Below the pieces are notes generated by a model. It had not been told where the DNA came from. It did not search any database and was given only the letters and a program-made list of their open reading frames with translations. Shown here one piece after another: positions 8,826 through 35,264 of a stretch of DNA of 51,841 nt. This DNA is from an archaeon (GTDB lineage: Archaea; Nanobdellota; Nanobdellia; Pacearchaeales; GW2011-AR1). Location: contig JBDRMT010000039.1 in NCBI GenBank assembly GCA_043811855.1, forward strand, positions 1 through 51,841, in the 5' to 3' direction. Each line of letters starts with the position of its first letter. Within the stretch, counting starts at the first letter, position 1. A program made the position numbers and the translations under genes.

Positions 8826-9761
8826 ATGGCAGAGAAAATATATGATATAAAGAGCTTAGGAGAAGTTAGGGAGAAGTTTGATGTAGTTGAGCTATCAAGA
8901 AAAATAAAGAAGCAAGGAGACGTTTTAATCCTTTCTAATGAGCTAAAAATTAAACCGAGAGTTATGAGCTTAGCTGTTGATGAGGGAAGAATCTTATCTC
9001 TTTTTTCAGGTATTCATAAGAGTAAAGCAGGGGTTTTGGCTAGATTGAGAACAGATAGAGAATTAATTAAATTTTCTAAAAAATATGATATTTATAATAT
9101 ATCTGTTCGAGATTTAATAAAATTAATTAATGAATGGAACAAGGATATTCAGAATAACCCTTTAATATTCCTTAGTCAAGAAGAACATGATTTGATTATT
9201 GGTAGTTTGTTAGGAGATGCAAGTATAAGACAAAGAGAGAAGAATTCTTGTTTTCGATTTTCTCATTCAATCAAACAAAAATATTATTCAGAACATAAGA
9301 GAGACATTTTAAAGAAATTTGGAATAACAGAGTTTAGAGAAGTTAAGAGAAAAATAAAAGATAATTTTATCTATGCTATTGATTTTTCTACTAGAACCCA
9401 TCCTGCTTTTAATTATTATAGAAATTTATTTTATAAAGATAGAAGGAAGGTTGTTAGTAAGGAATTATTAAATCAGTTAAATCCTAGAAGTTTGGCTTTT
9501 TGGGTTTGTGATGATGGAAGTTATAGTAGAACTCAAGGATATATTATTTTATGTACAAATTCTTTTAGTTTAGAAGAACATGAATTGATGAAAGAATTTT
9601 TTAATGATAGATTTGGATTGGATCCAACAATTGGTTTTAGAGATAAAAAATATTATTATTTAAGATTTAAAAAAGAAGATTCAGAGAAACTAATTAAGAT
9701 TATAAAACCTTTTATACCTAATTGTATGCAATATAAAATTGGAGGAGAGAATGGTAGATAA
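8826..9761 (+). CDS. Free-standing LAGLIDADG homing endonuclease (two-motif, LAGLIDADG_3-like) with an N-terminal extra domain
   Basis: 311 aa. Motif 1 is LIIGSLLGDASI and motif 2 is LAFWVCDDGSY. Its 3' end overlaps the gyrB ATG (9751) by 11 nt. Confidence 0.8.
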   Translation: MAEKIYDIKSLGEVREKFDVVELSRKIKKQGDVLILSNELKIKPRVMSLAVDEGRILSLFSGIHKSKAGVLARLRTDRELIKFSKKYDIYNISVRDLIKLINEWNKDIQNNPLIFLSQEEHDLIIGSLLGDASIRQREKNSCFRFSHSIKQKYYSEHKRDILKKFGITEFREVKRKIKDNFIYAIDFSTRTHPAFNYYRNLFYKDRRKVVSKELLNQLNPRSLAFWVCDDGSYSRTQGYIILCTNSFSLEEHELMKEFFNDRFGLDPTIGFRDKKYYYLRFKKEDSEKLIKIIKPFIPNCMQYKIGGENGR

Positions 9762-12700
9762 AAAAACAGATTATACTGCTAAGAATATTAAAGTTCTTCA
9801 AGGATTGGAGGCGGTAAGGCAGAGACCAAGTATGTATATAGGATCTACTGGCAAAGATGGTTTGCATCATTTAGTTTATGAAGTTGTTGATAATTCTATT
9901 GATGAGTGTTTAGCAGGTTTTTGTACTATTGTTGAGGTTACTATAAACAAGGATGGGAGTGTTACTGTTAAGGATAATGGAAGAGGTATTCCTGTTGATA
10001 TGCATTCTACTTATAAGAAATCTGCAGTTGAAGTTGCATTAACTAAATTGCATGCAGGAGGTAAGTTTGAAAAGAGTGCTTATCAAATTTCTGGTGGTTT
10101 GCATGGTGTAGGGGTTAGTGTTGTAAATGCATTATCAATAAAATTAAGTGTTAAAGTTTGTAGGGATGGAAAGATCCATCAACAAGAGTATAAGATTGGA
10201 AAACCAAATTATTCATTAAAAGTTGTTGGAAAATGTGGTAAGGATGAAACAGGAACTGAAATAACTTTTTATCCTGATAAAGATATTTTTTCAACTCTTG
10301 ATTTTGATTTTGCTGTTTTAAGAAAAAGAATACAAGAGATTGCATTTTTAAATCCTGTTAAAATTACATTAAAAGATGAGAAACATGGAAAAAAAGAAGT
10401 TTTTCATTATACAGGAGGATTAATTGAGTTTATTAATCATATAAATAAAAGTAAGGGAGTTTTGCATAAACCTATTTATTTTAAAAGACAGGAAAATTCT
10501 ACTATTGTTGAAGTTGCTCTTCAATATACAGATAGTTATAATGAAAATATTTTTGGATTTGTTAATACAATTAACACAACAGAAGGAGGAACTCATGTTT
10601 CTGGATTTAAAACTGCATTGACAAGAGCAATTAATGATTATGTTGCAAAAAAAGGATTATTAAAAAATGAAAAGTTGTCTGGAGATGATACTAGGGAAGG
10701 TTTAACTGCTATTATTAATATTAAGATGAGTGAACCTCAGTTTGAAGGGCAAACTAAAACTAAACTTGGTAATAGTGAGATGAAAGGGCTTGTAGATTCT
10801 TTAGTTTATGTTGCTTTTTCTGAGTTTTTAGAAGAAAATCCAAGTGTTTCAAATAAGATTGGACAAAAGGTTGTTGCTAGTGCAAAAGCTAGAAGTGCTG
10901 CTAGAAAGGCTAGAGACTTAGTTAGAAGGAAGAATGCAATGGGAGGGTTGTCTGGTTTGCCTGGTAAATTATCTGATTGTTCATCAAAGAAATTTGAAAG
11001 AACAGAACTTTATATTGTTGAGGGAGATTCAGCAGCTGGTTGTTTTTCAGGAGAGACTGAAGTAGTATTAGTTGATGGAAGGAGTATATCTTTTAAACAA
11101 CTTGTTAAAGAGGATAGTGAAGGAAAAGATAATTTTTGTTACACTATAAAAAATAATGGAACTATTGGAATTGGGAAAATAAAATATCCTAGAGTAACTA
11201 AAGAAAATACTGATGTAATTAAAATTGTTTTAGATAATAATAAGGAGATAATCTGTACACCTAATCATAAGTTTATGCTTAGGGATGGAAAATATAAAGA
11301 AGCAAAAGATTTAACAAAAGAAGATTCACTTATGCCTTTAAATAGAAAAATATCTAAGATTGGTGGAAGGATTACTATTGATGGTTATGAAATGGTATGG
11401 GATAATAAAAAGAAATTATGGATTTTTACACATTTATTAGCAGATGATTATAATTTGGAAAATGAGGTTTATGATAAAAAACAGGGAGATTCAAGGCATC
11501 ATATTAATTATAACAAACTTAATAATAATCCTAATAATATAGTTAGAATAAAGAGAGAAGATCATTTATTACATCATGCTGAGCACTTGGAAAAAGTATT
11601 ACATAGAGATGATGTTAAAGAAAAAGCCAGACAAGCTCATAAAACTCCGGAGTATAGAGAAAAAATTAAAAATTGGAGAAGGCAACCAGAAGTTAAGGAA
11701 ATGTTTTCTAATATTTCTAAAAATTTAATGAAAGATGAAAAATATAAAAAGAATTTAATGAAAAATTATATTAATTTTTATAATTCTGATGAAGAGTATA
11801 GAAAAGCTAATAATAAAAGATTAAATGATGCTCAGAAAAAATATTGGTCAGAATCTGAGAATATAAAAAAAGCATCTGAAAAAGTAAGAAAGTTTTTTGA
11901 GGAGAATCCTGATGCTAAGGAATATTTATCAAGTCTTGCAAAAGAGCAATGGAAAGATGAGGCTTTGATTATTTGGAGAAGGGAAAAAACTAGAGAGCAG
12001 TGGACTCCAGAGTTTAGAGAGAAACGGAAGATTGCTTATAATAAAACTTATTATAAAAAGACAATTAAATTAATGAAAGAAGTTGTAGAAGAGTTTGGAG
12101 ATTTAAATAATTTTGATGAGATTAGAATAAATAAAGGCGATAGAACTATTTTAAGTATGAAAACATTTTCTTCAAGGTTTTTTGAAGATAGTCCTTTAGA
12201 TATGTTAGAATCAGTTAAAAACTATAATCATAAAATAAAAAATATTTTTAAGTTAAATGAGAAGATTGATGTATATGATTTAGAGGTTGAAGATACTCAT
12301 AATTTTGCACTTGCATCAGGGGTTTTTGTTCATAATAGTTCAAAAATGGCAAGAGATAAAGAATTTCAAGCTATTTTACCTTTGAAAGGTAAGATTTTAA
12401 ATGTTGAAAAATCAAACCCAACTAAAGCCTTGAGTAGTGAGGAAATAATTAACTTAATTACTGCTATTGGAACTGGTGTTAAGGAAAATTTTGATTTAAA
12501 GAGGTTAAGATATAATAAAGTAATAATTATGACAGATGCAGATGTTGATGGTCAGCATATTATGACTTTGTTATTAACATTTTTTTATAGATATATTCCA
12601 GAATTAATTGAAAATGGAAATATTTATGTTGCTGTAAGTCCGTTGTTTAGAGTTAGAAAGAAAAAAGATTATTATGTTTATAGTGATGATGAGTTAAAAA

Positions 12701-12939
12701 GATTATTAGCAAAGTTAGGTGGTAAAGCTGATGTTCAAAGATTTAAAGGTTTAGGAGAGATGAATGCTCAGCAGTTATGGGATACTACTATGGATCCTAA
12801 GAAAAGAATTTTAAAGAAAATCCATATTGATGATGCTGTTATTGCTGATGAGACATTTACAATGTTAATGGGAGATGTGGTAGGTCCTAGAAGGAAGTTT
12901 ATTGAAACAAATGCTAATATTGCAGAGGTGGATATATGA
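9751..12939 (+). CDS. gyrB: DNA gyrase subunit B, interrupted by an intein
   Basis: It has GLEAVRQRPSMYIG, HHLVYEVVDNSIDE (GHKL ATPase), EGDSAAG|intein|SSKMARDKEFQAILPLKGKILNVEK (Toprim), IMTDADVDGQHI and KGLGEM. I start it at the ATG at 9751, preceded by ggaggaga. The track begins at a TTG at 9739. Confidence 0.95.
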   Translation: MVDKKTDYTAKNIKVLQGLEAVRQRPSMYIGSTGKDGLHHLVYEVVDNSIDECLAGFCTIVEVTINKDGSVTVKDNGRGIPVDMHSTYKKSAVEVALTKLHAGGKFEKSAYQISGGLHGVGVSVVNALSIKLSVKVCRDGKIHQQEYKIGKPNYSLKVVGKCGKDETGTEITFYPDKDIFSTLDFDFAVLRKRIQEIAFLNPVKITLKDEKHGKKEVFHYTGGLIEFINHINKSKGVLHKPIYFKRQENSTIVEVALQYTDSYNENIFGFVNTINTTEGGTHVSGFKTALTRAINDYVAKKGLLKNEKLSGDDTREGLTAIINIKMSEPQFEGQTKTKLGNSEMKGLVDSLVYVAFSEFLEENPSVSNKIGQKVVASAKARSAARKARDLVRRKNAMGGLSGLPGKLSDCSSKKFERTELYIVEGDSAAGCFSGETEVVLVDGRSISFKQLVKEDSEGKDNFCYTIKNNGTIGIGKIKYPRVTKENTDVIKIVLDNNKEIICTPNHKFMLRDGKYKEAKDLTKEDSLMPLNRKISKIGGRITIDGYEMVWDNKKKLWIFTHLLADDYNLENEVYDKKQGDSRHHINYNKLNNNPNNIVRIKREDHLLHHAEHLEKVLHRDDVKEKARQAHKTPEYREKIKNWRRQPEVKEMFSNISKNLMKDEKYKKNLMKNYINFYNSDEEYRKANNKRLNDAQKKYWSESENIKKASEKVRKFFEENPDAKEYLSSLAKEQWKDEALIIWRREKTREQWTPEFREKRKIAYNKTYYKKTIKLMKEVVEEFGDLNNFDEIRINKGDRTILSMKTFSSRFFEDSPLDMLESVKNYNHKIKNIFKLNEKIDVYDLEVEDTHNFALASGVFVHNSSKMARDKEFQAILPLKGKILNVEKSNPTKALSSEEIINLITAIGTGVKENFDLKRLRYNKVIIMTDADVDGQHIMTLLLTFFYRYIPELIENGNIYVAVSPLFRVRKKKDYYVYSDDELKRLLAKLGGKADVQRFKGLGEMNAQQLWDTTMDPKKRILKKIHIDDAVIADETFTMLMGDVVGPRRKFIETNANIAEVDI
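11041..12336 (+). mobile_element. GyrB intein (432 aa) with an HNH-type endonuclease domain
   Basis: It runs from Cys1 CFSGETEVV to the terminal VFVHN, followed by the +1 Ser. Block B is CTPNHKF. The HNH-like stretch is GDSRHHINYNKLNNNPNNIVRIKREDHLLHHAEH (about 11490-11590), followed by K/E/W-rich repeats. It is in frame with both exteins. Confidence 0.9.
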
Positions 12940-13328
12940 AAATACAATTAGCTTATAAAATGACTGGAGAAAATAGAGAAGAAGTAATTGAAATGCTTAA
13001 GGAGATAAAGAGTATTTTAGAAGAAAAAAGCAATGAAGTTTATGTTCCTGAGTTAAATCCAGATAGACCTAAAACTAAGAAAGAACTTTATCTAGATACA
13101 TTAAGAAAACTAGATAGTGCTGATGTTTTATTAGCTATTATTAAATCTGATGATAAAAGTGAAGGTATGTTAATGGAGATAGGTTATGCTATGGGAAAAG
13201 ATAAGAAAGTTGTTACAGCTATTTGGGATTGTGTTAAACAGACACACTTAAGAGAGTTAGCTAACCAGGTTATTGAGTTTAATAATATTGATAATTTATA
13301 TAAAAAATTAAAGGAGGTGGATATATAA
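12936..13328 (+). CDS. Nucleoside 2-deoxyribosyltransferase-like small protein
   Basis: 130 aa. SADVLLAIIKSDDKSEGMLMEIGYAMGKDKKV resembles the E-x-G-[YW]-A core of this fold. It has an ATGA overlap with the gyrB stop. Confidence 0.4.
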   Translation: MKIQLAYKMTGENREEVIEMLKEIKSILEEKSNEVYVPELNPDRPKTKKELYLDTLRKLDSADVLLAIIKSDDKSEGMLMEIGYAMGKDKKVVTAIWDCVKQTHLRELANQVIEFNNIDNLYKKLKEVDI

Positions 13329-13329
13329 A

Positions 13330-13713
13330 ATGAAAGAAGATTTTAATAAATTAAAAATAAGAATAGATGAAGAAGATTATGCTGTTGTAAGGACTAATAA
13401 GATTTATTCAGATGCATTTGCTAATATTAAACATAAGAAAGAGATTACAGTTATTATTGATCAAACTAAGATTCATGAAGAAGATATAATTGAAATTGAA
13501 AAAGATTGGAAGCTTATTACTTTTGATACTATTTTAGGACTTAGTTTAGTTGGTTTTGTAGCTAAAATATCAGAGGTTTTAGCAAAAGAAAAAATGAGTA
13601 TTTTTGTTTTATCTTCGTATTTTACAGACCATGTTCTTGTTAAGAAAAAGGATTTAGATAAAGCTGTTGAAGCATTAAATAAACTTGGAGTTAAAGTTAA
13701 GAAAAAATATTAA
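13330..13713 (+). CDS. ACT-domain protein
   Basis: 127 aa. The C-terminal half, ITFDTILGLSLVGFVAKISEVLAKEKMSIFVLSSYFTDHVLVKKKDLDKAVEAL, is a typical ACT beta-alpha-beta-beta-alpha-beta signature. Confidence 0.5.
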   Translation: MKEDFNKLKIRIDEEDYAVVRTNKIYSDAFANIKHKKEITVIIDQTKIHEEDIIEIEKDWKLITFDTILGLSLVGFVAKISEVLAKEKMSIFVLSSYFTDHVLVKKKDLDKAVEALNKLGVKVKKKY

Positions 13714-14085
13714 ATGGAAATAATAAAACCAGAAGTACATGAAAAAGCTTGGGGATTTGAAGAATGGGTTGCAAATAGAGATTATTGTGGGAAGATTATG
13801 CTTTTGAAAAAGGGATTTAGATGTAGTATTCACTATCATAAAAATAAAGATGAAACTTTTTATATTTTAAGTGGAAAAGTTTTATTTGAGTTAGGAGATG
13901 AGAAAGCAATTATGGTTCAAGGGGATGTTATTTTAGTTGAACCTGGAGTTAAACATAGATTTACTGGTTTAGAGGATTCAAAAATAATAGAGTTTTCAAG
14001 TCATCATGAAGATGATGATAGTTATAGAGATACTGAAAGTGGTAGTGTAGATTTAAGTGAATTAGATTTGGAGGTATTAGAATAA
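13714..14085 (+). CDS. Cupin-domain protein (type II phosphomannose-isomerase-like cupin)
   Basis: 123 aa. It has EKAWGFEEW, SIHYHKNKDETFYILSG and GDVILVEPGVKHRF, which are cupin motifs 1 and 2. Confidence 0.65.
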   Translation: MEIIKPEVHEKAWGFEEWVANRDYCGKIMLLKKGFRCSIHYHKNKDETFYILSGKVLFELGDEKAIMVQGDVILVEPGVKHRFTGLEDSKIIEFSSHHEDDDSYRDTESGSVDLSELDLEVLE

Positions 14086-14086
14086 A

Positions 14087-14275
14087 ATGAGCATAGAAGA
14101 TTTAAGATTTCAATTAGCAGTGAGAGAATTAGGTCCCTTTAAGAAATTTTTAATGGCAGATGGGACTTGGGTACCTATAACTGAAAGGGTTGGACCTTAT
14201 TGTGAAAAAGGTGGTTGTTTTTGTGATCAAACTTATGAGGAACATGAATGTGTTCAATGTAGTTATAATAATTAA
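14087..14275 (+). CDS. Small Cys/His-rich hypothetical protein (possible Zn-binding)
   Basis: 62 aa. It contains [20 protein letters not shown] and is tightly packed between the cupin gene and gyrA. Confidence 0.4.
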
Positions 14276-14277
14276 AA

Positions 14278-17200
14278 ATGGTAGATGAAGAAGAACAAGA
14301 AACATTAGAAGAGGATAAAGAAGATGAAATAATTGAAGAAGAAAATGAAAATAATGGAGATTCTAATGGAAATGGAAATGGTAATGGAAAAGGAAATGGG
14401 GTTGAAATAGAACATTTAGAAAGAACAGATTTAAATTTAAAAGATTTAGATGAAAATAGAGTTTTAGGAAGTGAGATTACTCATGAAATGAAAAAAGCAT
14501 ATATTGATTATGCTATGAGTGTAATTGTTAGTCGTGCATTGCCTAGTGTTGAAGATGGATTAAAACCAGTCCATAGAAGAATATTATATGCAATGAAGGC
14601 TATGGGGTTGGAAAAGGGAATGACTAAGAAAAGTGCTAGAATTGTTGGAGATACAATGGGTAAGTTTCATCCTCATGGTGATATGGCTATTTATGATTCA
14701 ATGGTTAGAATGGCTCAACCTTTTTCATTAAGATATCCTTTGGTTCATGGACAGGGTAATTTTGGTTGTTTTACAGCAGATACAAAGGTTAAACTTGTTG
14801 ATGGAAGAAATTTATCTTTTATAGATTTGATAAAAGAGAATAAAGAAGGTAAAAGAAATTTTACTTATACTATTAATGCAGATAAAAGAGTTTGTATTGC
14901 TGAAATAAAAAATCCAAGAAAAACTAAGATTAATACAGAGATTATTAAGGTTATTTTAGATAATGGAGAGGAAATTAAGTGTACTCCCAATCATAAATTC
15001 ATGTTAAAGGAGGGTAGTTATAAAGAAGCTCAGTTTTTAAAATCTGGAAATTCTCTAATGCCTGCTTATTTTAGATTATCTACTAAAGAGGATAGTCATA
15101 AGGCAGTGGGATATAATATGGTGTTTCAACCTCAATCAGATTCATGGGATTTTACTCATATTTTATCTGATCAATGGAATCTTAATGATAATATCTATCA
15201 AAAATCAACAGGTAGAATTAGACATCATATAGATTTTAATAAATTAAATAATAATCCCGATAATATTAGGAGAATGAATTGGAAAGAGCATTGGCAAACT
15301 CATTATAATTTTACTTCTGAAAAACATAAAAATGATCCAGAATATAGAAAAAAACTAGCAAAAGGTAGGGAAGAATTTTGGAATAATAATGATAATAGAG
15401 AAGCTTATTCTAAAAGGATGTCAGAGAGAAATCTTAAAAATTGGAAAAAAAAGGATTATAGAGATAAGATGAAAATAACTTTAAGTGAAGTTAATAGAAA
15501 ATATTTAGAAGAACATCCTGAAAGAATTGAAGAGATTAGAAGAACAGCTTCAATTACTTTTAGTAAGATGTGGAAGATTTCTAAGTATAGAGATTTGTTT
15601 AATAAGAAGATTGTTGCAAGTAATAAAAGACGAAAAACTAATCTTACAGGAAAAAGGAAGTTTTTGAATATATGTAATTATATGAAAAGTAATAATCTTT
15701 TATTAACTAAAGAAAATTATGAGAAAGTGAGGGTTGAGGTTTTTGGAGGAAAGAATTTTACAACTTGGGATTTTGGATTAGAGAAATATTATGAAGATGA
15801 TAAAAATTTATTATTATGTGAAATAAACAAAAATCATAAGGTTGTAAGTATTGAATTTTTAAATGAATTTACAGATGTTTATGATTTAACAATTGATAAT
15901 AGTCATAATTTTGCTCTTGCTTCAGGAGTTTTTGTTCATAATTCAATGGATGGAGATAGTGCTGCAGCATCAAGATATACAGAAGCTAAACTTGCAAAAA
16001 TTTCTATTGAATTATTACAAGATATTGATAAAGAAACTGTTAAATTTGTTCCTAATTTTGATAATTCACTAAAAGAACCTGTTGTTTTGCCTGGAAAATT
16101 ACCAAATTTACTAATAAATGGAAGTTCAGGAATTGCAGTTGGTATGACTACAAATATTCCACCTCATAATTTAGTTGAAGTTTGTGATGCAATAACTGCT
16201 GTTATAAATAAGCCTAAAATTACAACAGATGAGTTAATGGATATAGTTAAAGGTCCTGATTTTCCTACTGGAGGAAAAATTGTTGCTGAAAATCTAAAAG
16301 ATCTTTATGAAAAAGGAAAGGCTGGTTTTGTTATTAGGGGAAAAGTTACAACAGAAGAAAAAAAGAATAAAGAATTAATTGTTATAACTGAAATTCCTTA
16401 TCAAGTTAATAAATCAGATTTAGTTAAGCAGATTGCTGAACTTGTTAGAGATAAGAAGCTTTCTGAGATTTCAGATCTTAGAGATGAAAGTAGTAAGGGA
16501 AATGTTAGAATTGTTATTGAGGTAAAAAAAGGAGCTAATAGTCAGTTTACAATAAATAGGTTATATAAATCCACTAAATTACAAACTAGATTTGATGCTG
16601 TTTTAGTTGCATTAGAAGCAGGAATTCCTAAAACTTTCACATTAAGAAAAATAATTGATTCTTATATTAAATATAGAAGAAGGATTATTAGAAAAAGAAC
16701 AGAGTTTGATTTAAGAAAAGCAGAAGATAGGTTGCATATTGTTGAGGGCTTGCTTATGGCACTAAAACAATTAGATGCTATTATTGAAACTATTAAAAAA
16801 AGCAGAACAACATTAGAAGCATCTGAAGCTTTGCAAAAGAAATTTAAACTTTCTAAAAAGCAGGCTGAAGCTATTTTAGAGATTACTTTGAAGCAACTAA
16901 CATCTTTAGAAAGAGAAAGACTGCAAAAAGAAGAAAAAGACTTAAAAGAATTAATTGAAAAGTTAAAAAAGATTTTAGCTGATGAAGGAGAGATTTTAAA
17001 AATAATTAAACTTGACTTAAGTGAGTTAAAAAGAAATTATGGAGATAATAGAAGAAGCACTATAATCAAGACTATTAAGGAAATTAATGAAAAAGATTTA
17101 GTTCAGAAGAAAGATGTCATTATAACAATTACAGAGAAAGGTTATATTAAAAGAATGCCATTTAGAGCTTATAATGAGCAAAAGAGAGGAGGAAGAGGAG

Positions 17201-18075
17201 TTATAGGAGCTGAGTTGACAAGTGAGGATTTTGTTAAAAAATTAATTAGTTGCTCAACTCATGATTATTTATTATTATTTACAGCTCGTGGAAGAGTATT
17301 TTGGTTAAAAGCATATAAAGTTCCTGAAACTCAGAGATATGGTAAAGGACAGGCAATTGTTAATCTGTTAAGTATTAAGGATGATAGTATTACTAATGTA
17401 ATTGCTGTTAAGGAGTTTAAAGATTATTTGTTTATGGCTACTAGGAAAGGACAGGTTAAGAAAATTAAGTTAGAATTGTTTTCTAAACCAAGAAATGCAG
17501 GTGTTAGAATAATTAATCTTCCAAATGATAATAGTGATGAAGTTGTTGGGATTAAAGAAGTTAAGGGTAAGCAAGAAGTAATGTTAATAAGTGAGAAAGG
17601 TCAGGCTATTAGATTTAATTCAGATGATGTTAGAGATATGGGAAGAGCAAGCTATGGTGTTACAGGAATTAAGTTAGGAAAGGACGATAAGGTTGTTAGT
17701 TTGGAAATTGTTGAAGATGTTAAAGATTCTATTTTAACAATTACTCAAAAAGGGTATGGTAAAAGAAGCAGGATTGAAGATTATAGATTAACAGGAAGAG
17801 CTGGTAAGGGAGTTATTAATCTTAAGATAGGAGAAAAAACAGGAAATGTTGTTGGAACTATTGATGTTATTGATAAAGAAAAGTTTGTTGTTTCAACTAA
17901 AAAAGGAATTGTTATAAAAACAAGTGTTAAAGATATTAGGATTATGGGAAGAGCAACATCTGGTGTTAGAATAATTAAGCTTCAGCAAGGAGATAGAGTA
18001 AGTGCTATTTCAAAGTTAATGGAAGATAAAGAAGTTGTTGAGAATGGTGATGGTGGTGAGGAAAATGGAAATTGA
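14278..18075 (+). CDS. gyrA: DNA gyrase subunit A, interrupted by an intein; acidic/NG-repeat N-terminal extension
   Basis: It has [42 protein letters not shown]|intein|[17 protein letters not shown] (catalytic Tyr motif intact) and C-terminal beta-pinwheel repeats (GGRGV, RAGKGV). Confidence 0.95.
14767..15942 (+). mobile_element. GyrA intein (392 aa) with an HNH-type endonuclease domain, paralogous to the GyrB intein
   Basis: It runs from [14 protein letters not shown] to [23 protein letters not shown], followed by the +1 Ser. Block B is CTPNHKF. The HNH-like stretch is [31 protein letters not shown] (about 15220-15303). Confidence 0.9.
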
Positions 18076-22028: not shown

Positions 22029-22811
22029 TTATGGTGTTAGGAGCTCTTCTGTTGGAAGAGGATATTTATTTAAAAATTCAAATAAGTAAGGTTGTTCCAT
22101 TGTCTTATTTTCAAGTATCATTACTAAAGTAGAATCTTCTTCAAAAGCTATGAAATCAACATAAAGATTATCTTGTTTTGCCATTTCAGTTATACAGTTG
22201 ATACACATTAAATCTGCATCTTCTTTATGAGAATCTGTTATGTAAGTTGCTAATTTAATTATATCACTTAGTTTTGAATCTATTGTTAGTGAATGTTCTG
22301 AAAGTTCAAAAACAACTACATTATTATCATGGTTTATTTTTGTTGAAAGTGATGTTTTAAAGGTTATTTCTGATTGTTTTATTGTTGTTGTTGTTTGGGG
22401 TTCTGAAAAAGTTACTTCAAAATCTGAAAATTTAATATCTCTAATGCATGAGCCTATTTCATTATCAATAAAATTAGATAATTCAGATTCAATTTCTTGA
22501 GCTGAAGGTTGAAGAAATTCTCCTACATGATAATAATAAGGTACAAAAGTCCATTCCATGTCGTAGTAGTATTTTGGTTTGTTATAATATCCGCCTTGAA
22601 TTCCAGTTCTTATTAGTGCATCTTTAGATGTTGTTTCAAGGCAGTCAATTATAAAACCTTGTATATTATTAACAGTAGGTTGAAGTCCATGCTCTTTAAA
22701 GTAATTTAAATTATGTTCTTCTTTATCTGATTTTAGAAATACAAATAAAAGCACTATTACTACTATAATAACTGCTATTATTATGAAGATTGTTGTCTGC
22801 CCCTTTTTCAT
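22029..22811 (-). CDS. P1: class-III (type IV pilin-like) signal peptide protein, uncharacterised Cys-motif family
   Basis: 260 aa. It has MKKGQTTIFIIIAVIIVVIVLL, conserved DCLE, GIQGGYYNKP, FVPYYY, SCIRD and CINC. Confidence 0.8.
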   Translation of the reverse strand: MKKGQTTIFIIIAVIIVVIVLLFVFLKSDKEEHNLNYFKEHGLQPTVNNIQGFIIDCLETTSKDALIRTGIQGGYYNKPKYYYDMEWTFVPYYYHVGEFLQPSAQEIESELSNFIDNEIGSCIRDIKFSDFEVTFSEPQTTTTIKQSEITFKTSLSTKINHDNNVVVFELSEHSLTIDSKLSDIIKLATYITDSHKEDADLMCINCITEMAKQDNLYVDFIAFEEDSTLVMILENKTMEQPYLFEFLNKYPLPTEELLTP

Positions 22812-22946: not shown

Positions 22947-23729
22947 ATGAAAAGAGGACAAACTACTATTTTTATTATTTTAAGTATTGTTATTATAGCA
23001 GTAGTTGTAGTTTTGATTTTTGTTATTAATAATAAAGAAAAAACTGTTGATGATTATTTTTTAAGTTCTGAAGTTAAAGCAATGATGGATTCTTTAATAG
23101 TGGAAGTACAAGGATGTGCTGAAGAAACTTCAATAAATGCTTTAGATACTATTGGGTTTCAAGGAGGTTATTATAATAAACCTGAAAAAGCTTTTGAAGT
23201 AAGTGATCCTGATGAATTAGAGATTTTGGATTTTATTCCATATTATTATTATGAAGGACAGATTTTAGTTCCAACAAGAAATAATGTTGAAAATGAACTT
23301 TCAAAAGCAATTGATTCAGAATTAAGGGATTGTTTAGATAATATTGATTCTGAGCTTGATTTTAGTTATGGTAATTCAAAGAGTTTGGTTGAAATTAAAG
23401 ATAAAGAAGTAATTATTACTATTAAACAAGATATTAAAATTCAGAGAGAAGAACATACAACAACTTATAGGTTAGAAGATAATCCTATTGTTTTAGAGTC
23501 GGGATTAAAAGATATTTTAGAACTTGCTGATTATATGACTGAATCTCGTAAAGAAGAACCAAATAAAGATTGTGTTAGTTGTATTGCAGATGTTGCAGAA
23601 GAAAAAAACCTTTATATTGAAGTTACAAATTTTGATGAAGTTACAACACTTGTTACAATTTATGAAGAATATACAGAACAACAGCAATTGTTAATGTTTT
23701 TAAATAAATTTAAAGAAGAGGATTTGTAA
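22947..23729 (+). CDS. P2: class-III signal peptide protein, same family as P1
   Basis: 260 aa. It has MKRGQTTIFIILSIVIIAVVVV, GCAE, GFQGGYYNKP, FIPYYYY, DCLDN and CVSC. Confidence 0.8.
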   Translation: MKRGQTTIFIILSIVIIAVVVVLIFVINNKEKTVDDYFLSSEVKAMMDSLIVEVQGCAEETSINALDTIGFQGGYYNKPEKAFEVSDPDELEILDFIPYYYYEGQILVPTRNNVENELSKAIDSELRDCLDNIDSELDFSYGNSKSLVEIKDKEVIITIKQDIKIQREEHTTTYRLEDNPIVLESGLKDILELADYMTESRKEEPNKDCVSCIADVAEEKNLYIEVTNFDEVTTLVTIYEEYTEQQQLLMFLNKFKEEDL

Positions 23730-28803: not shown

Positions 28804-31533
28804 TTAATGCATATAATAATTAGGTGAATAAACCTGGTATCCTGAGGGTGAGGAGGGATTAGATATTTTTTGTTTTACTAATGTTTTAACAGTAGATTCA
28901 ATTCCATATTTGATTGCATCTGCATTTCTTTTTGCATATAAACTTTGACTTATTCCTTGGTAATATCCTCCATAAACATTAATTCCAATAGATCTCCCAA
29001 ATCTAGTATCACGAGGGTTAATATAAAAATTACCATTATTATCTATTCCACCTGAACCTGCAATAACAGGCAAGACATTTCCAATAAGAGGTCCTGCAAT
29101 AGGATTAATATTATAAGTATTTCCACCTGCTCTTATTTGGTATACATTGTTGCTTGCATCTTTTGTAAATTGCAGATAATTACTCGGGTTAGCTTTAATA
29201 AAACTTCCAATATTGCTTAGTTCTTGTTTAACAAATGAACTTACATCTGATAATCCAATCCCTTGTTCTGCTAGTTGTCCTTGCAAATTTTTATTATTTA
29301 ATACTGTATCTGTTGTAATTTGTCTTATTATATCATTATTAAATTGTGTTTGTCCTCCTGAAAAAGAACTTAAAGAACTGCTTAATCTGCTTGATGTAAC
29401 TGATAAATCTATATTTCCTGAATTTAATACTTGATTATATTTTACATAAAGACTATCTCTAAGTTGGGTTAATTCTTTTCTTTCTTTGTCTGACCATCCA
29501 TCTTGTTGATATTGATAATATAATTTTCTATATTCTTCATTAGCTTGTGCTTCATAAGCTTTAGCTAATGCAATAGAATTACTATCAACCTTATAATCTG
29601 CAGTTAATACATTTTCATAACTTCCTTTATAACCACTATCACCCCAAAATAAAAACCTGTAACCATAACTTACTCCTCCTCCAGCATCAACTTTATATTC
29701 TCCTTTTACACTTTGAAGATCAGTTAAACCCCTAATCCATTTACCATTAGAATTCATATTTACTCCCACTACATTAAGGTTTCCATATTGGTCTGAAAAA
29801 ATATTAATTGCTTGCATTTCATTGAAATTTTTATTAAGAAGATTAAAATTAATATCCTGAAATGAAGTTTCTTTATTATTAATTTTTGCAGGCAGAACAT
29901 ATCCATATGAATTTGCTTGGGCGATATTAACTAGTTTTCCATACGAATCAGTAATTTGTAAACTTCCACCATACATTTCAATATTTTTTAATTTTTTTGC
30001 ATCTTGATTATTTAATTGAATATATAATATTGCTTCAGGATGTTGATTTAAACTACTTAATAATGGATTGTTTAAATTTTTTGAAATAGAGTCAACAGTA
30101 TTGCTAAATGTATTTGCTAAATCTCCTGTAGCACCCACTCCTATGTTTGCATGTCTTAAGACTTTATCTATTACAAATAATCCACCTTCAGAGGTTAGTG
30201 ATTTGATAAGGGGATGTTCTTGAGGCAGGCCAAGTTCTGAAGCAAATTCTGATTTTATTTTTCCTTCTATTGTTTCTAAAGCACTTTTTGCTAAATCAAT
30301 TCCAAATCCAAGCCTTTCTGCAGTTGCAACTGCATTTCGAGCAGTAGTTAGGCTTGATTTAGCAAGCTGAATTTTGCCACTAATACCTGAAATTTTTTCA
30401 TTTAATTTACCCATATAAGAATTAATTTCATTAAATTTTGTTTTAGTATCTCCTAAAGCTCCTCCAGAAACTCTTTCTACATCAGCTTTAGTTATTAGAT
30501 TAGTTTCTAAATCAATCATGATTTTTGATCCTTTTGCTTTATCATAACTTTCGCTATCATAAGTTACTGTAAAGTCTTTTCCAAAAAAATATTTTGAACC
30601 TTCTTTATTTTTATACATATTATTTATTTTTGTTAATTTACCCTTTGAATCAAAAGTAAGTTCACCATCTTTAAGAGCATATAATAGATTCCCTTTATTG
30701 TCATACTCTCCATTAGGATGTCTAAAAACTGAATAAGATTCTTTTTTCGAGTTAGTAAATTCTGCAAAGTTTGTATTATCATTTGCAATACCATCTTTGT
30801 TTTTACCATATTCAAAACTTAATTTAACTTCATTAGTTGATGCATCTATTTTTAAACTTCCTAATCCATTCCATTTTCCTGAAAAAGGATCTTTTTGATC
30901 TACTAATCCATTTTCTCCTACTCTTCCAATTTGCCCTGAGTCTGGATTAAAATAAAAACCTTTTTGAGATTGATCAACTGTTAGGTCTAGAGTGTTTCCA
31001 TTTTGTTTTTTGAAAACTAAAGAACTCGTGCTTCCTTCTTTTTTATATTCAATTGAGGTTATTTTGTTATTCGGATTCTTTTTATTGAACTCTACAACCT
31101 TATCCATTTGGAAAAATCCCTTGCTATTTCCAATGACATTTTTATCTCCAAAAAGAACTGCTTCATTACCCATATTTTTAAAATCTACATTATAATGTTT
31201 TCCATAATTTTGCATAAATGAGTTTTTATCTTGTTCACTTAATCCTTCTAAAAGTGCTCTTTTTTGATCTGTAGTTAAATCCTTTTTCCATTGATTCCAA
31301 AATTCTTTTGTGTCAGAGTTAATATTAGAAATAATTTGTGATTTTTGTTCTGGAGATAGGTTTTCAAGATTCTTTATTAATTCTGGACTTAAAACTCCAT
31401 TATCTTCTAAAGTAAGTAATCCATCTCTAAGATCTTCATCATCATAAGTTGCATTAACTAAACTTAAACATAAGATTATGCTTATTGCAATTAATACTAG
31501 AATATTTTTATTGTTCATTGAAACTTGATACAT
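28804..31533 (-). CDS. Secreted large protein 'L-F'; function unknown
   Basis: 909 aa. It has the signal peptide NILVLIAISIILCLSLVNA|TYDD and overlaps the 3' end of P3. An alternative start is the Met at 31518. Confidence 0.85.
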   Translation of the reverse strand: MYQVSMNNKNILVLIAISIILCLSLVNATYDDEDLRDGLLTLEDNGVLSPELIKNLENLSPEQKSQIISNINSDTKEFWNQWKKDLTTDQKRALLEGLSEQDKNSFMQNYGKHYNVDFKNMGNEAVLFGDKNVIGNSKGFFQMDKVVEFNKKNPNNKITSIEYKKEGSTSSLVFKKQNGNTLDLTVDQSQKGFYFNPDSGQIGRVGENGLVDQKDPFSGKWNGLGSLKIDASTNEVKLSFEYGKNKDGIANDNTNFAEFTNSKKESYSVFRHPNGEYDNKGNLLYALKDGELTFDSKGKLTKINNMYKNKEGSKYFFGKDFTVTYDSESYDKAKGSKIMIDLETNLITKADVERVSGGALGDTKTKFNEINSYMGKLNEKISGISGKIQLAKSSLTTARNAVATAERLGFGIDLAKSALETIEGKIKSEFASELGLPQEHPLIKSLTSEGGLFVIDKVLRHANIGVGATGDLANTFSNTVDSISKNLNNPLLSSLNQHPEAILYIQLNNQDAKKLKNIEMYGGSLQITDSYGKLVNIAQANSYGYVLPAKINNKETSFQDINFNLLNKNFNEMQAINIFSDQYGNLNVVGVNMNSNGKWIRGLTDLQSVKGEYKVDAGGGVSYGYRFLFWGDSGYKGSYENVLTADYKVDSNSIALAKAYEAQANEEYRKLYYQYQQDGWSDKERKELTQLRDSLYVKYNQVLNSGNIDLSVTSSRLSSSLSSFSGGQTQFNNDIIRQITTDTVLNNKNLQGQLAEQGIGLSDVSSFVKQELSNIGSFIKANPSNYLQFTKDASNNVYQIRAGGNTYNINPIAGPLIGNVLPVIAGSGGIDNNGNFYINPRDTRFGRSIGINVYGGYYQGISQSLYAKRNADAIKYGIESTVKTLVKQKISNPSSPSGYQVYSPNYYMH

Positions 31534-32362
31534 TAAAATTTAATTCAAAGTCAGATGGATCATTTTCATAGTTTATGTTATTTTCAACAGGTAGCATATT
31601 TATTTCTTCAAGATCCTTAGTAGCACTTAATGCAAAATTATAAAATCTTGGATAATTTTCTTCTTTTATATCATAAATTGTAACAATCAACATGTTATTT
31701 AGTGAGTCATCAAATTCTACAATTAGTTCATAGTCTATTGCTATTTCTTGAATGCAACTTATACAGACTGATTCTTTATTAATATCATAAGAAAATGCAA
31801 TATAAGATGCAAGGGAATTTATACCATATAATTTAGATTTAATATTTATTGTTGAATCACTAAAGTCTATTATGTTTGTTGAATTATCTTGAGTTAGTAT
31901 TAAATTTAAATTATTAATTATGTTTATGTTACCTTCTGAAATACTTATATTAGATAATGAATAAGAATAATCATATTCAACAATGTCTGTATCTATTAAT
32001 TCAAAACAATTATTTTTTTTAGAATCTATATATAGAGCTATTTGTTCTTGTATTAGAATAATTTCTGGAATATATTCTAATTCTCCAAAATAATAAAATG
32101 GAATAGAATTTAAATCATTTTTCAAATACATACTTAATGGTTCATAAAAATAACCTCCTTGTAAAGAAACTGTATTTATTGCTTCTTTATGTAATTCTTC
32201 AAAACAATCTCTTACTTGATTATCAATAATTTCTGTTTGTTTTTTAAAACTAAGGGTTGAAATGTCATCTGGATTAGAATTATTATATATAATAAAAAAT
32301 ACTATAACAGCTACTATGACAATTGCTATTATTATGAATATTGTTGTCTGCCCCTTTTTCAT
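31508..32362 (-). CDS. P3: class-III signal peptide protein, same family as P1
   Basis: 284 aa. It has MKKGQTTIFIIIAIVIVAVIVFF, DCFE, SLQGGYFYEP, SIPFYYF, NCFEL and CISC. Confidence 0.8.
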   Translation of the reverse strand: MKKGQTTIFIIIAIVIVAVIVFFIIYNNSNPDDISTLSFKKQTEIIDNQVRDCFEELHKEAINTVSLQGGYFYEPLSMYLKNDLNSIPFYYFGELEYIPEIILIQEQIALYIDSKKNNCFELIDTDIVEYDYSYSLSNISISEGNINIINNLNLILTQDNSTNIIDFSDSTINIKSKLYGINSLASYIAFSYDINKESVCISCIQEIAIDYELIVEFDDSLNNMLIVTIYDIKEENYPRFYNFALSATKDLEEINMLPVENNINYENDPSDFELNFNVSSFNEQ

Positions 32363-32415: not shown

Positions 32416-34392
32416 TTAATATTCATAAACAGGTTCATATTCTTTAAGTTGGAAGTTATTTGTCATCACACTATTTATATCTTTAACAGGCATCCAAATG
32501 TCTTGACTTTCACGATATTTAAAAAATTGACCTTTTATAAATGCTACTCTTGTTCCACTAGTTAGAGTATATGAATAATCTGCATTACCTAAATTTTTAG
32601 TTTCTGTCTTTCCATTTTCCCTAACTTTAACTTTAATATTTTCATGAGTTTCTAAAGATGTTGAAAGATCTTCTCCTATAACTTGTCCATAATATGTTTT
32701 TAACATTTCGCTTTGTTTTATTTTTTCACCACTAGTAATTATTGAATTTTTTATTTCTTTTTTTATTCCTGTTTCAGAAACAGTTTCAAGCTGAACACCT
32801 GAAGTTGTACTTTCTAGTGCTATTCTTGTTTCTCCCAGAGTTGTAGGAATTTCTGTTTGTTCTTGCATTTTTTGAGGGCTACTATCCATAACCTCTCTTA
32901 CTTCTGGGCTGATTGATCTTTCACTGCCTCCTGTTGATATTGTTTTTCTAGGTTCTTCAGATGGTGCATCTTCTTGATTAGTAACAAGAGTAAATTCTTC
33001 AGTTCTATCTACATTAACATAATCTTCTTCATCTATATCTTCATCATAAAGAGTAATTATTGGTTCTTGATTTTTTTTGATGGTTACATCATTTTCACCA
33101 ACACTTAAACTATTTTCTTTTCCAACATTAAATTTTATACCTTTACTTGCTAATCTTTCATCTATCTTTGTACTGACTATTCCTTTGATAGCTACCCCAT
33201 CTTCATATATTGATTTATCTGTAATACTTATAACTCTTTCACCATCCTGAGCTATGTAATCTCCTGTTAGATATTTTCCATTTAAATCTAAAGTTGCTAT
33301 TCCATCAAGTTCTATATCTGGTATTTTAACACCCTCTATAGTGCTTCTTAGTGCTGCATTTTTACCTCTAACCCTCATTATTCCATCTTCTATCATACTA
33401 ACCTCAAAAAATCCTTGTTTTTTAGCAGTGATAAAAGAATTATCTAAATCTATTATTGCATCTCCCCATCCTTTTATACTATTTTTTTCAATAAAGACTA
33501 TACCTTTTGCTCCTAAATCAACCCTTATATCTCTTTCTATGCCATCTTTACCTATGTTTCCTTTTGCAACCCAGTCTTTGTTTTCTTTCATTTCAAGATA
33601 AGTTCCAGGATTAGCTGCCATATATCTATCATTGTCTATTTCGTAAGTCATATAAGAACCTTCAGAAGCATCTACAAGACCAATACGTTTTATATTCATT
33701 GGGACATTTTTTAATGGAAGAATATGTTCTTTTCCTGAAGAATCTGTTATAATCATTCTTTCAAAATCATTATCATTCTTATATTGTAATTTTATGTTTT
33801 TTGATATTTGACTTCCATCAGGATTTAGGAGATAAACATTTTTATCCATTAATGATGATAAGAATTCTTGTTTTTGTACATTATCTATTTTGTTTAATAA
33901 TTGTTCACTTTCTAGAATTTCTAGAAATTCTTGAGTTCTTGAAACTGCAAAAGGGTCTGAAGATATTCCTTTATCAGATTCTTTTGTTATTTCAAGTATT
34001 TTTTTTAGATTATTTCCTGCATTTTCAATATTTCCAGATTCTTTCATTTGTTGAATTATTATTTTTTTATAATCTTTTCCTATTGCAGTATAAAAGGCAG
34101 TTTTATCTTTAAGAGTTAGTTCTTTATTATTTATAACTTCTTGAAAAAGGTCATGTTTTTTTTGATGGCTGATTTGTGCAAATTGATCATCTAACCAATA
34201 AACATCTTGAGGAGCATTATTCTTAACTTTACTAACAATTAATTCTAAATTTGTCTGAGATAATTCACCATTAACAAGCCAGGTATTAGAATCATCTAGA
34301 TTAAAATTAGGATTTGTCTCGCTATTAACAACTACAAAGCTAGTTAAAAGTATTAGAGATATTATGGTTATTAAAAAAATTCTTTTTATCAT
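32416..34392 (-). CDS. Secreted large protein 'L-G'; function unknown
   Basis: 658 aa. It has the signal or anchor MIKRIFLITIISLILLTSFVVV and an ATGA overlap with the P4 stop. It shares an N-terminal motif with L-B. Confidence 0.85.
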   Translation of the reverse strand: MIKRIFLITIISLILLTSFVVVNSETNPNFNLDDSNTWLVNGELSQTNLELIVSKVKNNAPQDVYWLDDQFAQISHQKKHDLFQEVINNKELTLKDKTAFYTAIGKDYKKIIIQQMKESGNIENAGNNLKKILEITKESDKGISSDPFAVSRTQEFLEILESEQLLNKIDNVQKQEFLSSLMDKNVYLLNPDGSQISKNIKLQYKNDNDFERMIITDSSGKEHILPLKNVPMNIKRIGLVDASEGSYMTYEIDNDRYMAANPGTYLEMKENKDWVAKGNIGKDGIERDIRVDLGAKGIVFIEKNSIKGWGDAIIDLDNSFITAKKQGFFEVSMIEDGIMRVRGKNAALRSTIEGVKIPDIELDGIATLDLNGKYLTGDYIAQDGERVISITDKSIYEDGVAIKGIVSTKIDERLASKGIKFNVGKENSLSVGENDVTIKKNQEPIITLYDEDIDEEDYVNVDRTEEFTLVTNQEDAPSEEPRKTISTGGSERSISPEVREVMDSSPQKMQEQTEIPTTLGETRIALESTTSGVQLETVSETGIKKEIKNSIITSGEKIKQSEMLKTYYGQVIGEDLSTSLETHENIKVKVRENGKTETKNLGNADYSYTLTSGTRVAFIKGQFFKYRESQDIWMPVKDINSVMTNNFQLKEYEPVYEY

Positions 34393-35222
34393 ACTAGTGG
34401 TGGTGGAGTAGGAGTATTTCCTTGAGTTTCAGATAAAGGTGTTACTTCGTTTCCTGTGTATCTATTTAAAAACTCAAAACTATAAGGTTCTGATGAGATA
34501 TGATTTTCTGATATTACAATTAGCATTTCATTTTCTTGGAAATTTATTATATCTACATAAAGCTCATTTTCTTCTGCCATTTCACTAACACAAGTAATAC
34601 AATACATTGAAGGATCTTGTTTATGGGTTTCTGTTATATAATCTGCAATATTTAATATAGCAGATAGTTCTGATGGTATTATTACTGGATAATCTGCTGT
34701 TTCGTAAACAATAGAGTGTTTATCTTTTTTAATTTTTATAGGAAGATCTATTTCAAATAAAACTTGCTCATCTTCAATAGTTGTTTTTGATCTTGCCTTT
34801 GTATATTCTAATTCAAATCCTTCTGATGAAACTGATTTTATACAGTTTGTTATTTCTTTTTCATTAAATTTTGAAAGTTCAATTTCAACTTCTTGTTTTG
34901 AAGGCATTAGATATCGTCCTTGATTATAATAATAAGGGATAAATGTCCATCCTAAATCAAAGTAATCTTTTGAATTTAATGGTCTTTCATAAAGTCCTCC
35001 TTGAATTCCTATTGTTTGTAAAGATTCTTTAGAAGCAGATTCAAGGCAATTTTGTATATTTATTTGAACAGAGTTTAGAGATGATTTAATTTCTGAACTT
35101 GAAAAGAATTCTTTAGCAACATCTGTTTTTTTATTTTGAACAATAATATAGCTTGTTCCTGCAACAGCTGCAAAAATAACTATTGCTATTATGATAAATA
35201 CTGTTGTCTGCCCCTTTTTCAT
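34389..35222 (-). CDS. P4: class-III signal peptide protein, same family as P1
   Basis: I start it at the ATG at 35222 (MKKGQTTVFIIIAIVIFAAV). The track starts at a TTG at 35231. It has NCLE, GIQGGLYERP, FIPYYYN, NCIKS, CITC and a Pro-rich C-terminus TPTPPPLV. Confidence 0.8.
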   Translation of the reverse strand: MKKGQTTVFIIIAIVIFAAVAGTSYIIVQNKKTDVAKEFFSSSEIKSSLNSVQINIQNCLESASKESLQTIGIQGGLYERPLNSKDYFDLGWTFIPYYYNQGRYLMPSKQEVEIELSKFNEKEITNCIKSVSSEGFELEYTKARSKTTIEDEQVLFEIDLPIKIKKDKHSIVYETADYPVIIPSELSAILNIADYITETHKQDPSMYCITCVSEMAEENELYVDIINFQENEMLIVISENHISSEPYSFEFLNRYTGNEVTPLSETQGNTPTPPPLV

Positions 35223-35264
35223 GAACAACAAAAGATAATTATACTTATAAATTTATCTAAAAAC

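Follow-up and report, generated by a model that had tools for sequence, protein, structure and literature searches.

The subject of this study is a pair of inteins that interrupt the two DNA gyrase genes of an archaeon. Both lie on contig JBDRMT010000039.1 (GenBank assembly GCA_043811855.1, Pacearchaeales), whose 51,841 nucleotides were analyzed as a whole and are called the window here. The window has a G+C content of 26-32% and encodes archaeal-type proteins, the database entries closest to its gyrase genes carry the labels Pacearchaeota, Woesearchaeota or Nanoarchaeota, and its sequence is also present in groundwater metagenomes; its host is a groundwater DPANN-type archaeon. The gyrB and gyrA genes lie on the same (+) strand and are separated by three small genes, for a nucleoside deoxyribosyltransferase-like protein, an ACT-domain protein and a cupin. 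Each gyrase gene carries one intein, and a tblastn search of the window with both inteins as queries found no further copies. The parts of the two genes are as follows.

9739-12939 (+): gyrB precursor gene, 1066 residues, from the open reading frame (ORF) list; NCBIfam TIGR01059, 890 bits against a cutoff of 882
9739-11040 and 12337-12939 (+): gyrB N-extein and C-extein, from the ORF list
11041-12336 (+): GyrB intein, 432 residues (precursor residues 435-866), class 1 (Cys1...His-Asn, Ser+1), inside the Toprim motif
11041-11352 (+): N-terminal HINT part of the GyrB intein, blocks A and B, with CTPNHKFML at 11254-11280
11353-12213 (+): endonuclease insert of the GyrB intein, with a NUMOD4-like strand region, the HNH motif and a long helical repeat region
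11494-11577 (+): HNH motif of the GyrB intein, RHHINYNKLNNNPNNIVRIKREDHLLHH
12214-12336 (+): C-terminal HINT part of the GyrB intein, blocks F and G, with the block sequence at 12268-12336
14278-18075 (+): gyrA precursor gene, 1265 residues, from the ORF list; NCBIfam TIGR01063, 1043 bits against a cutoff of 877
14278-14766 and 15943-18075 (+): gyrA N-extein and C-extein, with the catalytic Tyr codon TAT at 15976-15978
14767-15942 (+): GyrA intein, 392 residues (precursor residues 164-555), class 1, ending 12 residues before the catalytic Tyr
14767-15078 (+): N-terminal HINT part of the GyrA intein, with CTPNHKFML at 14980-15006
15079-15819 (+): endonuclease insert of the GyrA intein, with the HNH motif at 15220-15303, then about nine helices
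15820-15942 (+): C-terminal HINT part of the GyrA intein, with the block sequence at 15874-15942

The hosts are true gyrB and gyrA genes, as both precursors score above the NCBIfam equivalog cutoffs. Both ORFs are uninterrupted, and removal of the inteins leaves continuous host proteins of 634 residues (GyrB) and 873 residues (GyrA). Pfam Intein_splicing matches both inteins (E 2.6e-23 and 6.3e-22). With slashes marking the splice junctions, the GyrB boundaries read EGDSAAG/CFSGETE...GVFVHN/SSKMARD and the GyrA boundaries HGQGNFG/CFTADTK...GVFVHN/SMDGD. An earlier inspection of the bare letters of this DNA, which we call the sequence-only reading, had split GyrB in the Toprim motif at EGDSAAG/C...HN/SSKMARD and GyrA at HGQGNFG/C...HN, and had described HNH-type inteins with unrelated extein contexts in both subunits; the search results confirm both points and the coordinates. 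For annotation, this means that both gyrase genes are intact intein-containing precursors, neither fusions nor pseudogenes. Intein-bearing genes are often truncated by gene callers and in databases, and many database homologues of the intein-bearing gyrase genes of the window are partial.

The residues expected of working inteins are in place. Both inteins have C1, T73-P-N-H76, D373, H380, H391-N392 and Ser+1, and both have the motif HH..N..NN..N....H...H. Among 42 gyrA-site and gyrB-site inteins, C1, T73, H76, H154, N161, N162, N166, H175, H179, D373, H391 and N392 are invariant (42/42), and H153 and H380 are kept in at least 90%; the HNH residues (HH, N, N, H) are likewise invariant in 30 of 30 inteins taken from different sites. 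The splicing and HNH residues of both inteins are thus intact. The AlphaFold2 (AF2) model of the GyrA intein has a mean predicted local distance difference test score (pLDDT) of 89 and a HINT fold that matches the RecA, DnaB and DnaE inteins in the PDB at E ~1e-6. In the AF2 model of the GyrA endonuclease insert (pLDDT 92), a strand-strand-helix unit (E47-50, E63-66, H68-85) surrounds the motif and carries the HH..N..H residues, and about nine helices follow it; Pfam found no credible family in the helical region of the inserts. When the insert model was compared with the viral structures of BFVD, a phage Hint-domain protein ranked first (E 3.7e-7), and the named top matches were mostly HNH, NUMOD4 or generic homing endonucleases at probabilities of 0.85-1.0, with E <0.001 at rank 1 only.

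The conserved residues suggest how such a pair would work. Each precursor would splice itself via Cys1, the Thr-x-x-His of block B, the Asp/His of block F, the terminal His-Asn and Ser+1, and splicing would restore the Toprim motif of GyrB and the active-site-adjacent segment of GyrA, so that both reactions would be needed for active gyrase, as the sequence-only reading had proposed. The HNH domain, with the helical region contributing to DNA binding, would cut intein-less alleles, and recombinational repair would then copy the intein in. Such homing would explain a spread over DPANN archaea, bacteria of the candidate phyla radiation (CPR) and other phyla.

The two inteins resemble each other well beyond chance at the protein level, as had been claimed. 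BLASTP aligns them over their whole length at 35% identity (E 5e-74), and by this alignment they are homologous along the whole architecture of HINT domain, HNH module and helical region. Identity varies along the alignment. It is 53% in the first 110 columns (58/110, in line with the earlier count of more than half over the first ~100 residues), drops to 41% near the HNH motif and 27% across the helical region, and rises again to 57% over the last 49 columns. Block B, CTPNHKFML, is identical in both, and the HNH strings and C-termini are as the sequence-only reading had quoted them. The last 13 residues are identical, and the corresponding 39 nucleotides at the 3' end agree at 36 positions.

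The closest relatives of each intein, however, lie elsewhere. Each was searched against 5.8 billion proteins. The closest matches of the GyrA intein (47-69% identity, full length) are all in GyrA exteins, with the junction GQGNFG/C...HN/S.DGD, and GyrB inteins enter its match list only from 33-38% identity. The closest matches of the GyrB intein (44-65% identity) are all in GyrB, and all 42 complete GyrB matches share the Toprim-site insertion point (EGDSAGG/C...HN/SAKxxR) with the window intein. A scan of GTDB with one genome per species gave at least 525 stretches encoding relatives of the GyrA intein. Among the best 80 of these, the intein occupies the same gyrA site in 72, of which 71 are free of internal stops, and most are 390-395 residues long; once the GTDB loci are included, identity to the window GyrA intein reaches 75% (range 47-75%). 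The best GTDB loci come from Pace-, Woese-, Nano- and Micrarchaeota, Diapherotrites, many CPR lineages, Omnitrophota, Elusimicrobiota, Geobacter, Gammaproteobacteria and Methanosarcinales, and GyrB Toprim-site homologues occur in cyanobacteria, Chloroflexota, CPR and archaea. Mini-intein variants without a nuclease exist at both the gyrA and the gyrB sites. In an alignment of 52 complete inteins of at least 380 residues, the window pair is 36.7% identical, which is the mean of the 640 gyrA-site by gyrB-site pairs, and ranks 336th, with 335 pairs more alike. A neighbor-joining (NJ) tree separates gyrA-site from gyrB-site inteins in 100 of 100 bootstraps and places the window GyrB copy within the gyrB-site clade. 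The description of the two inteins as closely related therefore fails, with same-site relatives at 44-69% identity against 35% between the window pair.

Some loci met in these searches deserve separate mention. In two CPR-type bacterial contigs (L004, 7205-10881; L005, 10001-13632), gene calls break the intein-bearing gyrA, downstream of the intein, into two or three genes in a row, for which an alternative genetic code, frameshifts or assembly errors could be the cause. Metagenome contigs laid on the locus of the window are mostly intein-less gyrB and gyrA of other community members. One groundwater contig (run X1) matches the gyrA flanks and skips exactly the intein (14765/15949), with 7 differing letters at the junction and a depth of 13, similar to that of the intein-containing contig; a related organism whose gyrA has no intein thus co-occurs in the sample.

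Beyond the two gyrase sites, the same architecture is found in a much larger set of proteins. The GyrA endonuclease insert, used as the query against 1.8 billion cluster representatives, gave 490 proteins at E <=1e-3 and 113 at E <=1e-10; inteins were delimited in these by hidden Markov models built from the gyrA-site and gyrB-site alignment, and hosts were checked with Pfam. HINT plus HNH occurs at no fewer than 15 distinct junctions, including the two gyrase sites, a second gyrB site in the ATPase region just before GLHGVG, RtcB, dCTP deaminase, T4-like portal proteins and an ATPase-like host not identified further. The start CF.GDT, the end GVFVHN and the HH..N..NN..N motif are common to the whole superfamily and not special to the window pair. 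Within it, the two gyrase families are reciprocal best non-allelic matches: all 36 gyrA-site members point to gyrB and all 60 gyrB-site members to gyrA, and over the conserved modules the two families have an average identity of 0.48 to each other, compared with 0.37-0.45 to the remaining labelled site classes. A homologue search with a concatenated HINT-only query returned short fragments only and added nothing. Among the hosts, several very large proteins (1,500-3,000 residues), some of them phage-like, carry two to five inteins of this HNH type (P0256, P0260, P0273, P0286, P0338, P0347-P0349, P0352, P0359-P0361 and P0380), and P0336 and P0264, which also bear it, are T4-like portal proteins by Pfam.

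Our reading of these results, to which as a whole we give a probability of roughly 0.85, has three parts: that in each intein the HINT splicing domain is split by an I-HmuI-like HNH homing endonuclease together with a helical region that presumably binds DNA; that each is a member of a separate allelic family, which is old, widespread and tied to one site; and that the common ancestor of the two families lies in the large HNH-intein superfamily and long predates this organism. For the relation between the families, an ancient switch between the two gyrase genes, in either direction and either direct or indirect, is the most economical reading of the sequences, though a tentative one. Of the intein paralogy that had been proposed across the two genes, the part that stands is this ancient link between allelic families; the part that does not is a recent jump in or near this genome.

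Several observations count against this reading. The window HNH regions fall below the Pfam HNH_3 cutoff of 24.8 bits (16.7 for the GyrA insert, 11.6 for the other); the homologous inteins P0341 and P0286 match HNH_3 at 44.7 and 45.1 bits, relatives reaching E 1e-11. The match to I-HmuI in the PDB is not significant, being the top one by fold at E 3 and standing at E 0.66 by profile. The NJ tree over all sites leaves the deep branching order unresolved and places a few divergent inteins of the gyrA and gyrB sites away from the core clades. Sampling of the other sites is also biased, as the matches were gathered with the GyrA nuclease as the query.

The alternative that survives these results best is that no direct transfer between gyrB and gyrA took place and that each site acquired its intein separately from a mobile pool of HNH inteins, such as those carried by phages, which would make the two families cousins and not parent and daughter. 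In its favor, the same HINT-plus-HNH architecture stands at 15 or more sites, and some proteins hold two to five such inteins. The all-site NJ tree has no gyrA-plus-gyrB clade and places the RtcB and second-gyrB-site inteins beside the core gyrA-site clade, and the divergent inteins that are also found at the gyrA and gyrB sites suggest repeated invasions. The two target sites, moreover, show no DNA similarity beyond chance, with a best 15-nucleotide window of 11/15 that equals the 95th percentile of shuffles. Against independent seeding stand the reciprocal best non-allelic matches of all 36 and all 60 members and the identity of 0.48 between the families, where other site classes give 0.37-0.45. 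We regard independent seeding as possible, though on the doubtful side. A common DNA target behind a jump was rejected on the same shuffling result; GDSAA is encoded near the junction in both exteins, but on opposite sides of the two insertion points.

A further branch of this lineage leads to radA. Three archaeal RadA proteins (P0112, P0116 and P0119; L006 3001-4488) contain mini-inteins of 153-162 residues with the junction GGHxxGHA/C...HN/ST(Y/F)R; the window itself holds no radA. The N-terminal splicing part of these inteins is 61-72% identical to the window GyrA intein and 53-54% identical to the window GyrB intein, and over the splicing modules the window GyrA intein has a mean identity of 71% to the radA inteins as against 63% to other gyrA-site inteins. 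A HINT-only NJ tree joins the radA inteins to the gyrA subclade of the window, to the exclusion of more distant gyrA-site and all gyrB-site inteins, in 74 of 100 bootstraps. The radA mini-inteins thus look, by these alignments, like a group nested in the archaeal gyrA-site clade, which would represent a younger gyrA-radA move with loss of the HNH nuclease. The radA link is a better case of ectopic transfer than the gyrase pair of the window.

How the two families have fared within one archaeal lineage can be read from a related contig, L002 (ENA ERZ27254729 k141_904299), whose gyrB and gyrA both contain an intein and are separated by a few genes. Compared with the window, L002 has identities of 63% for the GyrB intein, 69% for the GyrA intein, 65% for the GyrB extein and 62% for the GyrA extein. 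The intein pair of L002 itself is 36% identical, and cross-genome pairs of a GyrA and a GyrB intein are 35-38% identical. From these values, the split of the two families predates the split of the two organisms by a wide margin. Since the window and L002 parted, the inteins have, by the same identities, diverged about as much as gyrase itself, and both seem to have been passed down this lineage along with the genes that host them. In the gyrA gene of L002, an in-frame TAA stands precisely in place of the catalytic Tyr codon (11561-11563; ..PPAAYR-stop-TEARI), and gene calling divides the gene in two; a sequencing error, a pseudogene or strain variation could account for this.

Joint inheritance raises the question of whether the inteins are kept for a benefit to the host, for example as conditional-splicing switches that gate gyrase, and not as active selfish homing elements. 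That the inteins of the window and L002 are kept as strongly as the exteins (63-69% against 62-65%), that both sit in catalytic motifs and that both are present together in two related genomes would fit such a role. The HNH catalytic residues, on the other hand, are invariant across the families, which suggests that nuclease activity is under selection; a patchy occurrence across domains, as seen here, is what homing typically produces, and the nuclease-less mini-inteins at both sites also speak against host benefit as the explanation, which we consider unlikely. A broader proposal, for which we would claim somewhat more but which is still speculative, is that this intein lineage may switch repeatedly among DNA-metabolism genes that are non-homologous yet linked in function (the gyrB Toprim motif, the gyrA active-site segment and radA, where the radA move would be comparatively recent and followed by loss of the nuclease), and that the DPANN gyrase inteins, co-inherited and conserved like gyrase, could jointly gate gyrase assembly at the posttranslational level.

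The sequence-only reading had favored an ectopic transfer of one gyrase intein into the partner subunit gene, which we considered as a recent transfer, or gene conversion, in this genome or lineage. Its evidence was real in part. The homology does run over the full length of both inteins, and the near-identity of the 3' ends at the DNA level is correct as a count (last 13 residues identical, 36/39 nucleotides). Given identical amino acids and the codon usage of the genome, however, simulation yields 32.9 of 39 identical nucleotides, with P(>=36) = 0.10, so the near-identity does not exceed chance. Over 150 aligned positions with the same degenerate amino acid, the same codon is used at 96 against 92.5 +/- 5.6 expected; there is thus no excess of codon identity, and synonymous sites are saturated. 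The last 50 alignment columns have 22 codons the same where 17.7 +/- 2.3 are expected, which leans toward a recent transfer. A circular contig in a related metagenome that joins a gyrA-type intein to the gyrB C-extein, described below, leans the same way. Against it, the window pair is 35% identical overall while the same-site inteins of L002 reach 63-69%, the gyrA-site/gyrB-site split has full bootstrap support (100/100), and the pair stands 336th of 640. It had been set beforehand that nearest relatives at the same site in other organisms would refute a recent transfer, and such same-site inteins are indeed the nearest relatives found. We therefore regard a recent transfer as very improbable.

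Two narrower ideas were considered and rejected. Gene conversion at the 3' end was rejected on the simulated 3' identity (36/39 against 32.9 expected, P = 0.10) and the codon count of 96 against 92.5 +/- 5.6. Genome-specific coevolution of the two HINT domains was considered because, by HINT-only identity, same-genome pairs are among the highest 2-3% of cross-family pairs; pairs taken across genomes from these same clades are at least as similar (0.62 against 0.60 for the same genome), which makes this a clade or composition effect and also argues against a recent transfer.

The circular contig is L001 (ENA ERZ27248201 k141_7546225), of 2311 nucleotides and encoding protein P0095. It has a terminal direct repeat of 141 nucleotides, which indicates a circular assembly path. 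Its order is the end of the gyrB C-extein, a 63-residue ORF, an ACT gene, the gyrA N-extein, a 166-residue gyrA-type mini-intein and the gyrB C-extein, and the switch from gyrA-type to gyrB-type sequence falls within the last ~65 nucleotides of the intein, in the shared block F/G. L001 is either an assembly loop through common intein sequence or a circle from recombination between two directly repeated inteins. The block F/G sequence shared by the two inteins can mislead assemblers, of which this chimeric contig is likely an example.

That one or both inteins are degenerate and do not splice, with gyrA or gyrB a pseudogene, is hardly credible: the in-frame TAA in L002 gyrA, which would be a broken copy within the clade, is in its favor, but the window ORFs are uninterrupted, the predicted fold is confident, and the canonical splicing residues, whose loss the sequence-only reading had named as the mark of degeneration, are all present and are invariant or at least 90% conserved in the 42 family members.

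Other features of the window stand apart from the inteins. Directly upstream of gyrB lies a free-standing LAGLIDADG_2 homing-endonuclease gene (8826-9761, +; 311 residues; Pfam E 3e-41), which overlaps the gyrB start codon by 23 nucleotides and whose first ~120 residues have no Pfam match. Ribosomal protein genes occupy the corresponding place in L002, so that gyrB of the window is flanked by a second, unrelated kind of homing element. The GyrA protein has an acidic N-terminal extension with a low-complexity run ahead of its conserved domain (14278-14400, +). Farther along, five paralogues of ~250-285 residues (22029-22811, -; 22947-23729, +; 31508-32362, -; 34389-35231, -; 36224-36976, +) have MKKGQTTIFIIIA-like N-termini of archaeal prepilin type, which we read as a putative archaeal pilin-like signal; Pfam gave no match for the three of the five that were searched. 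Large secreted-looking proteins (522-909 residues) are interleaved with these paralogues, and together they look like a repeated surface-structure cassette. A protein of 1591 residues (39218-43993, -) has a hydrophobic N-terminal segment and a C-terminal Fic/DOC domain (Pfam E 1.7e-11; motif HPFEDGNGRTSR), the remainder having no family match.

Among known systems, the nearest counterpart of the window GyrB intein is that of Synechocystis sp. PCC6803, whose site we take to be the classical gyrB Toprim site and in which the HNH nuclease was reportedly identified by Dalgaard et al. in 1997. The two share the gene, the Toprim insertion point (EGDSAGG/SAKQGR in Synechocystis) and a full-length form with an HNH-type nuclease; they differ in that the host of the window intein is a DPANN-type archaeon and its extein motif is EGDSAAG/SSKMARD. 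The mycobacterial GyrA intein (Mycobacterium xenopi and M. leprae; PDB 1AM2) also lies in GyrA and close to the catalytic Tyr. It follows that residue (..RY/C...N/TEA..), whereas the window intein lies 12 residues upstream of it, a different site; the M. xenopi intein is not known to have an HNH domain. A PDB sequence search with the window intein gave no match to the M. xenopi GyrA intein, and the NCBIfam model NF038098 (GyrA_w_intein) matches window GyrA in the extein part only, at 828 bits against a cutoff of 1850. By insertion site, PDB search and this score, the Mxe GyrA type of allele is ruled out. With the I-HmuI-type HNH endonucleases (HNH_3 with NUMOD4; PDB 1U3E), the window inteins share the motif HH..N..NN..N....H...H and the predicted strand-strand-helix; unlike I-HmuI, matches to which are not significant, the window nuclease lies within an intein and precedes a long helical repeat region that has no Pfam match.

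The gyrB intein allele has been described as old and as crossing the boundary between archaea and bacteria (Soucy et al. 2014, PMC4071816), work on gyrase phylogenies has noted inteins in archaeal GyrA and GyrB and left them aside (PMC9348778), and bacterial GyrA and GyrB are among listed intein hosts (PMC4760082). Our literature search found no paper that describes the gyrA GQGNFG/S-site allele specifically; NCBI annotates one of its members, in metagenome-assembled genomes, as 'intein-containing DNA gyrase subunit A'. The window copy has the same insertion point as this HNH intein family, the same length (390-395 residues in most members) and 47-75% identity to it, and with no material difference it is one more member. 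The locus is accordingly an ordinary instance of two established, well-populated intein alleles in one genome, and for intein biology the window itself adds nothing unusual. A modest lead lies in the superfamily of at least 15 sites, with its reciprocal-nearest gyrase families and its radA offshoot, as material for studying how homing endonucleases gain new targets. A parallel is offered by eukaryotic RNA polymerase genes, in which multiple non-allelic inteins have been described (PMC1635734). The two cases are alike in having related inteins at non-homologous sites, which implies past site switching, and they differ in that the switch considered here would link two subunits of one enzyme, plus radA, and would be ancient.

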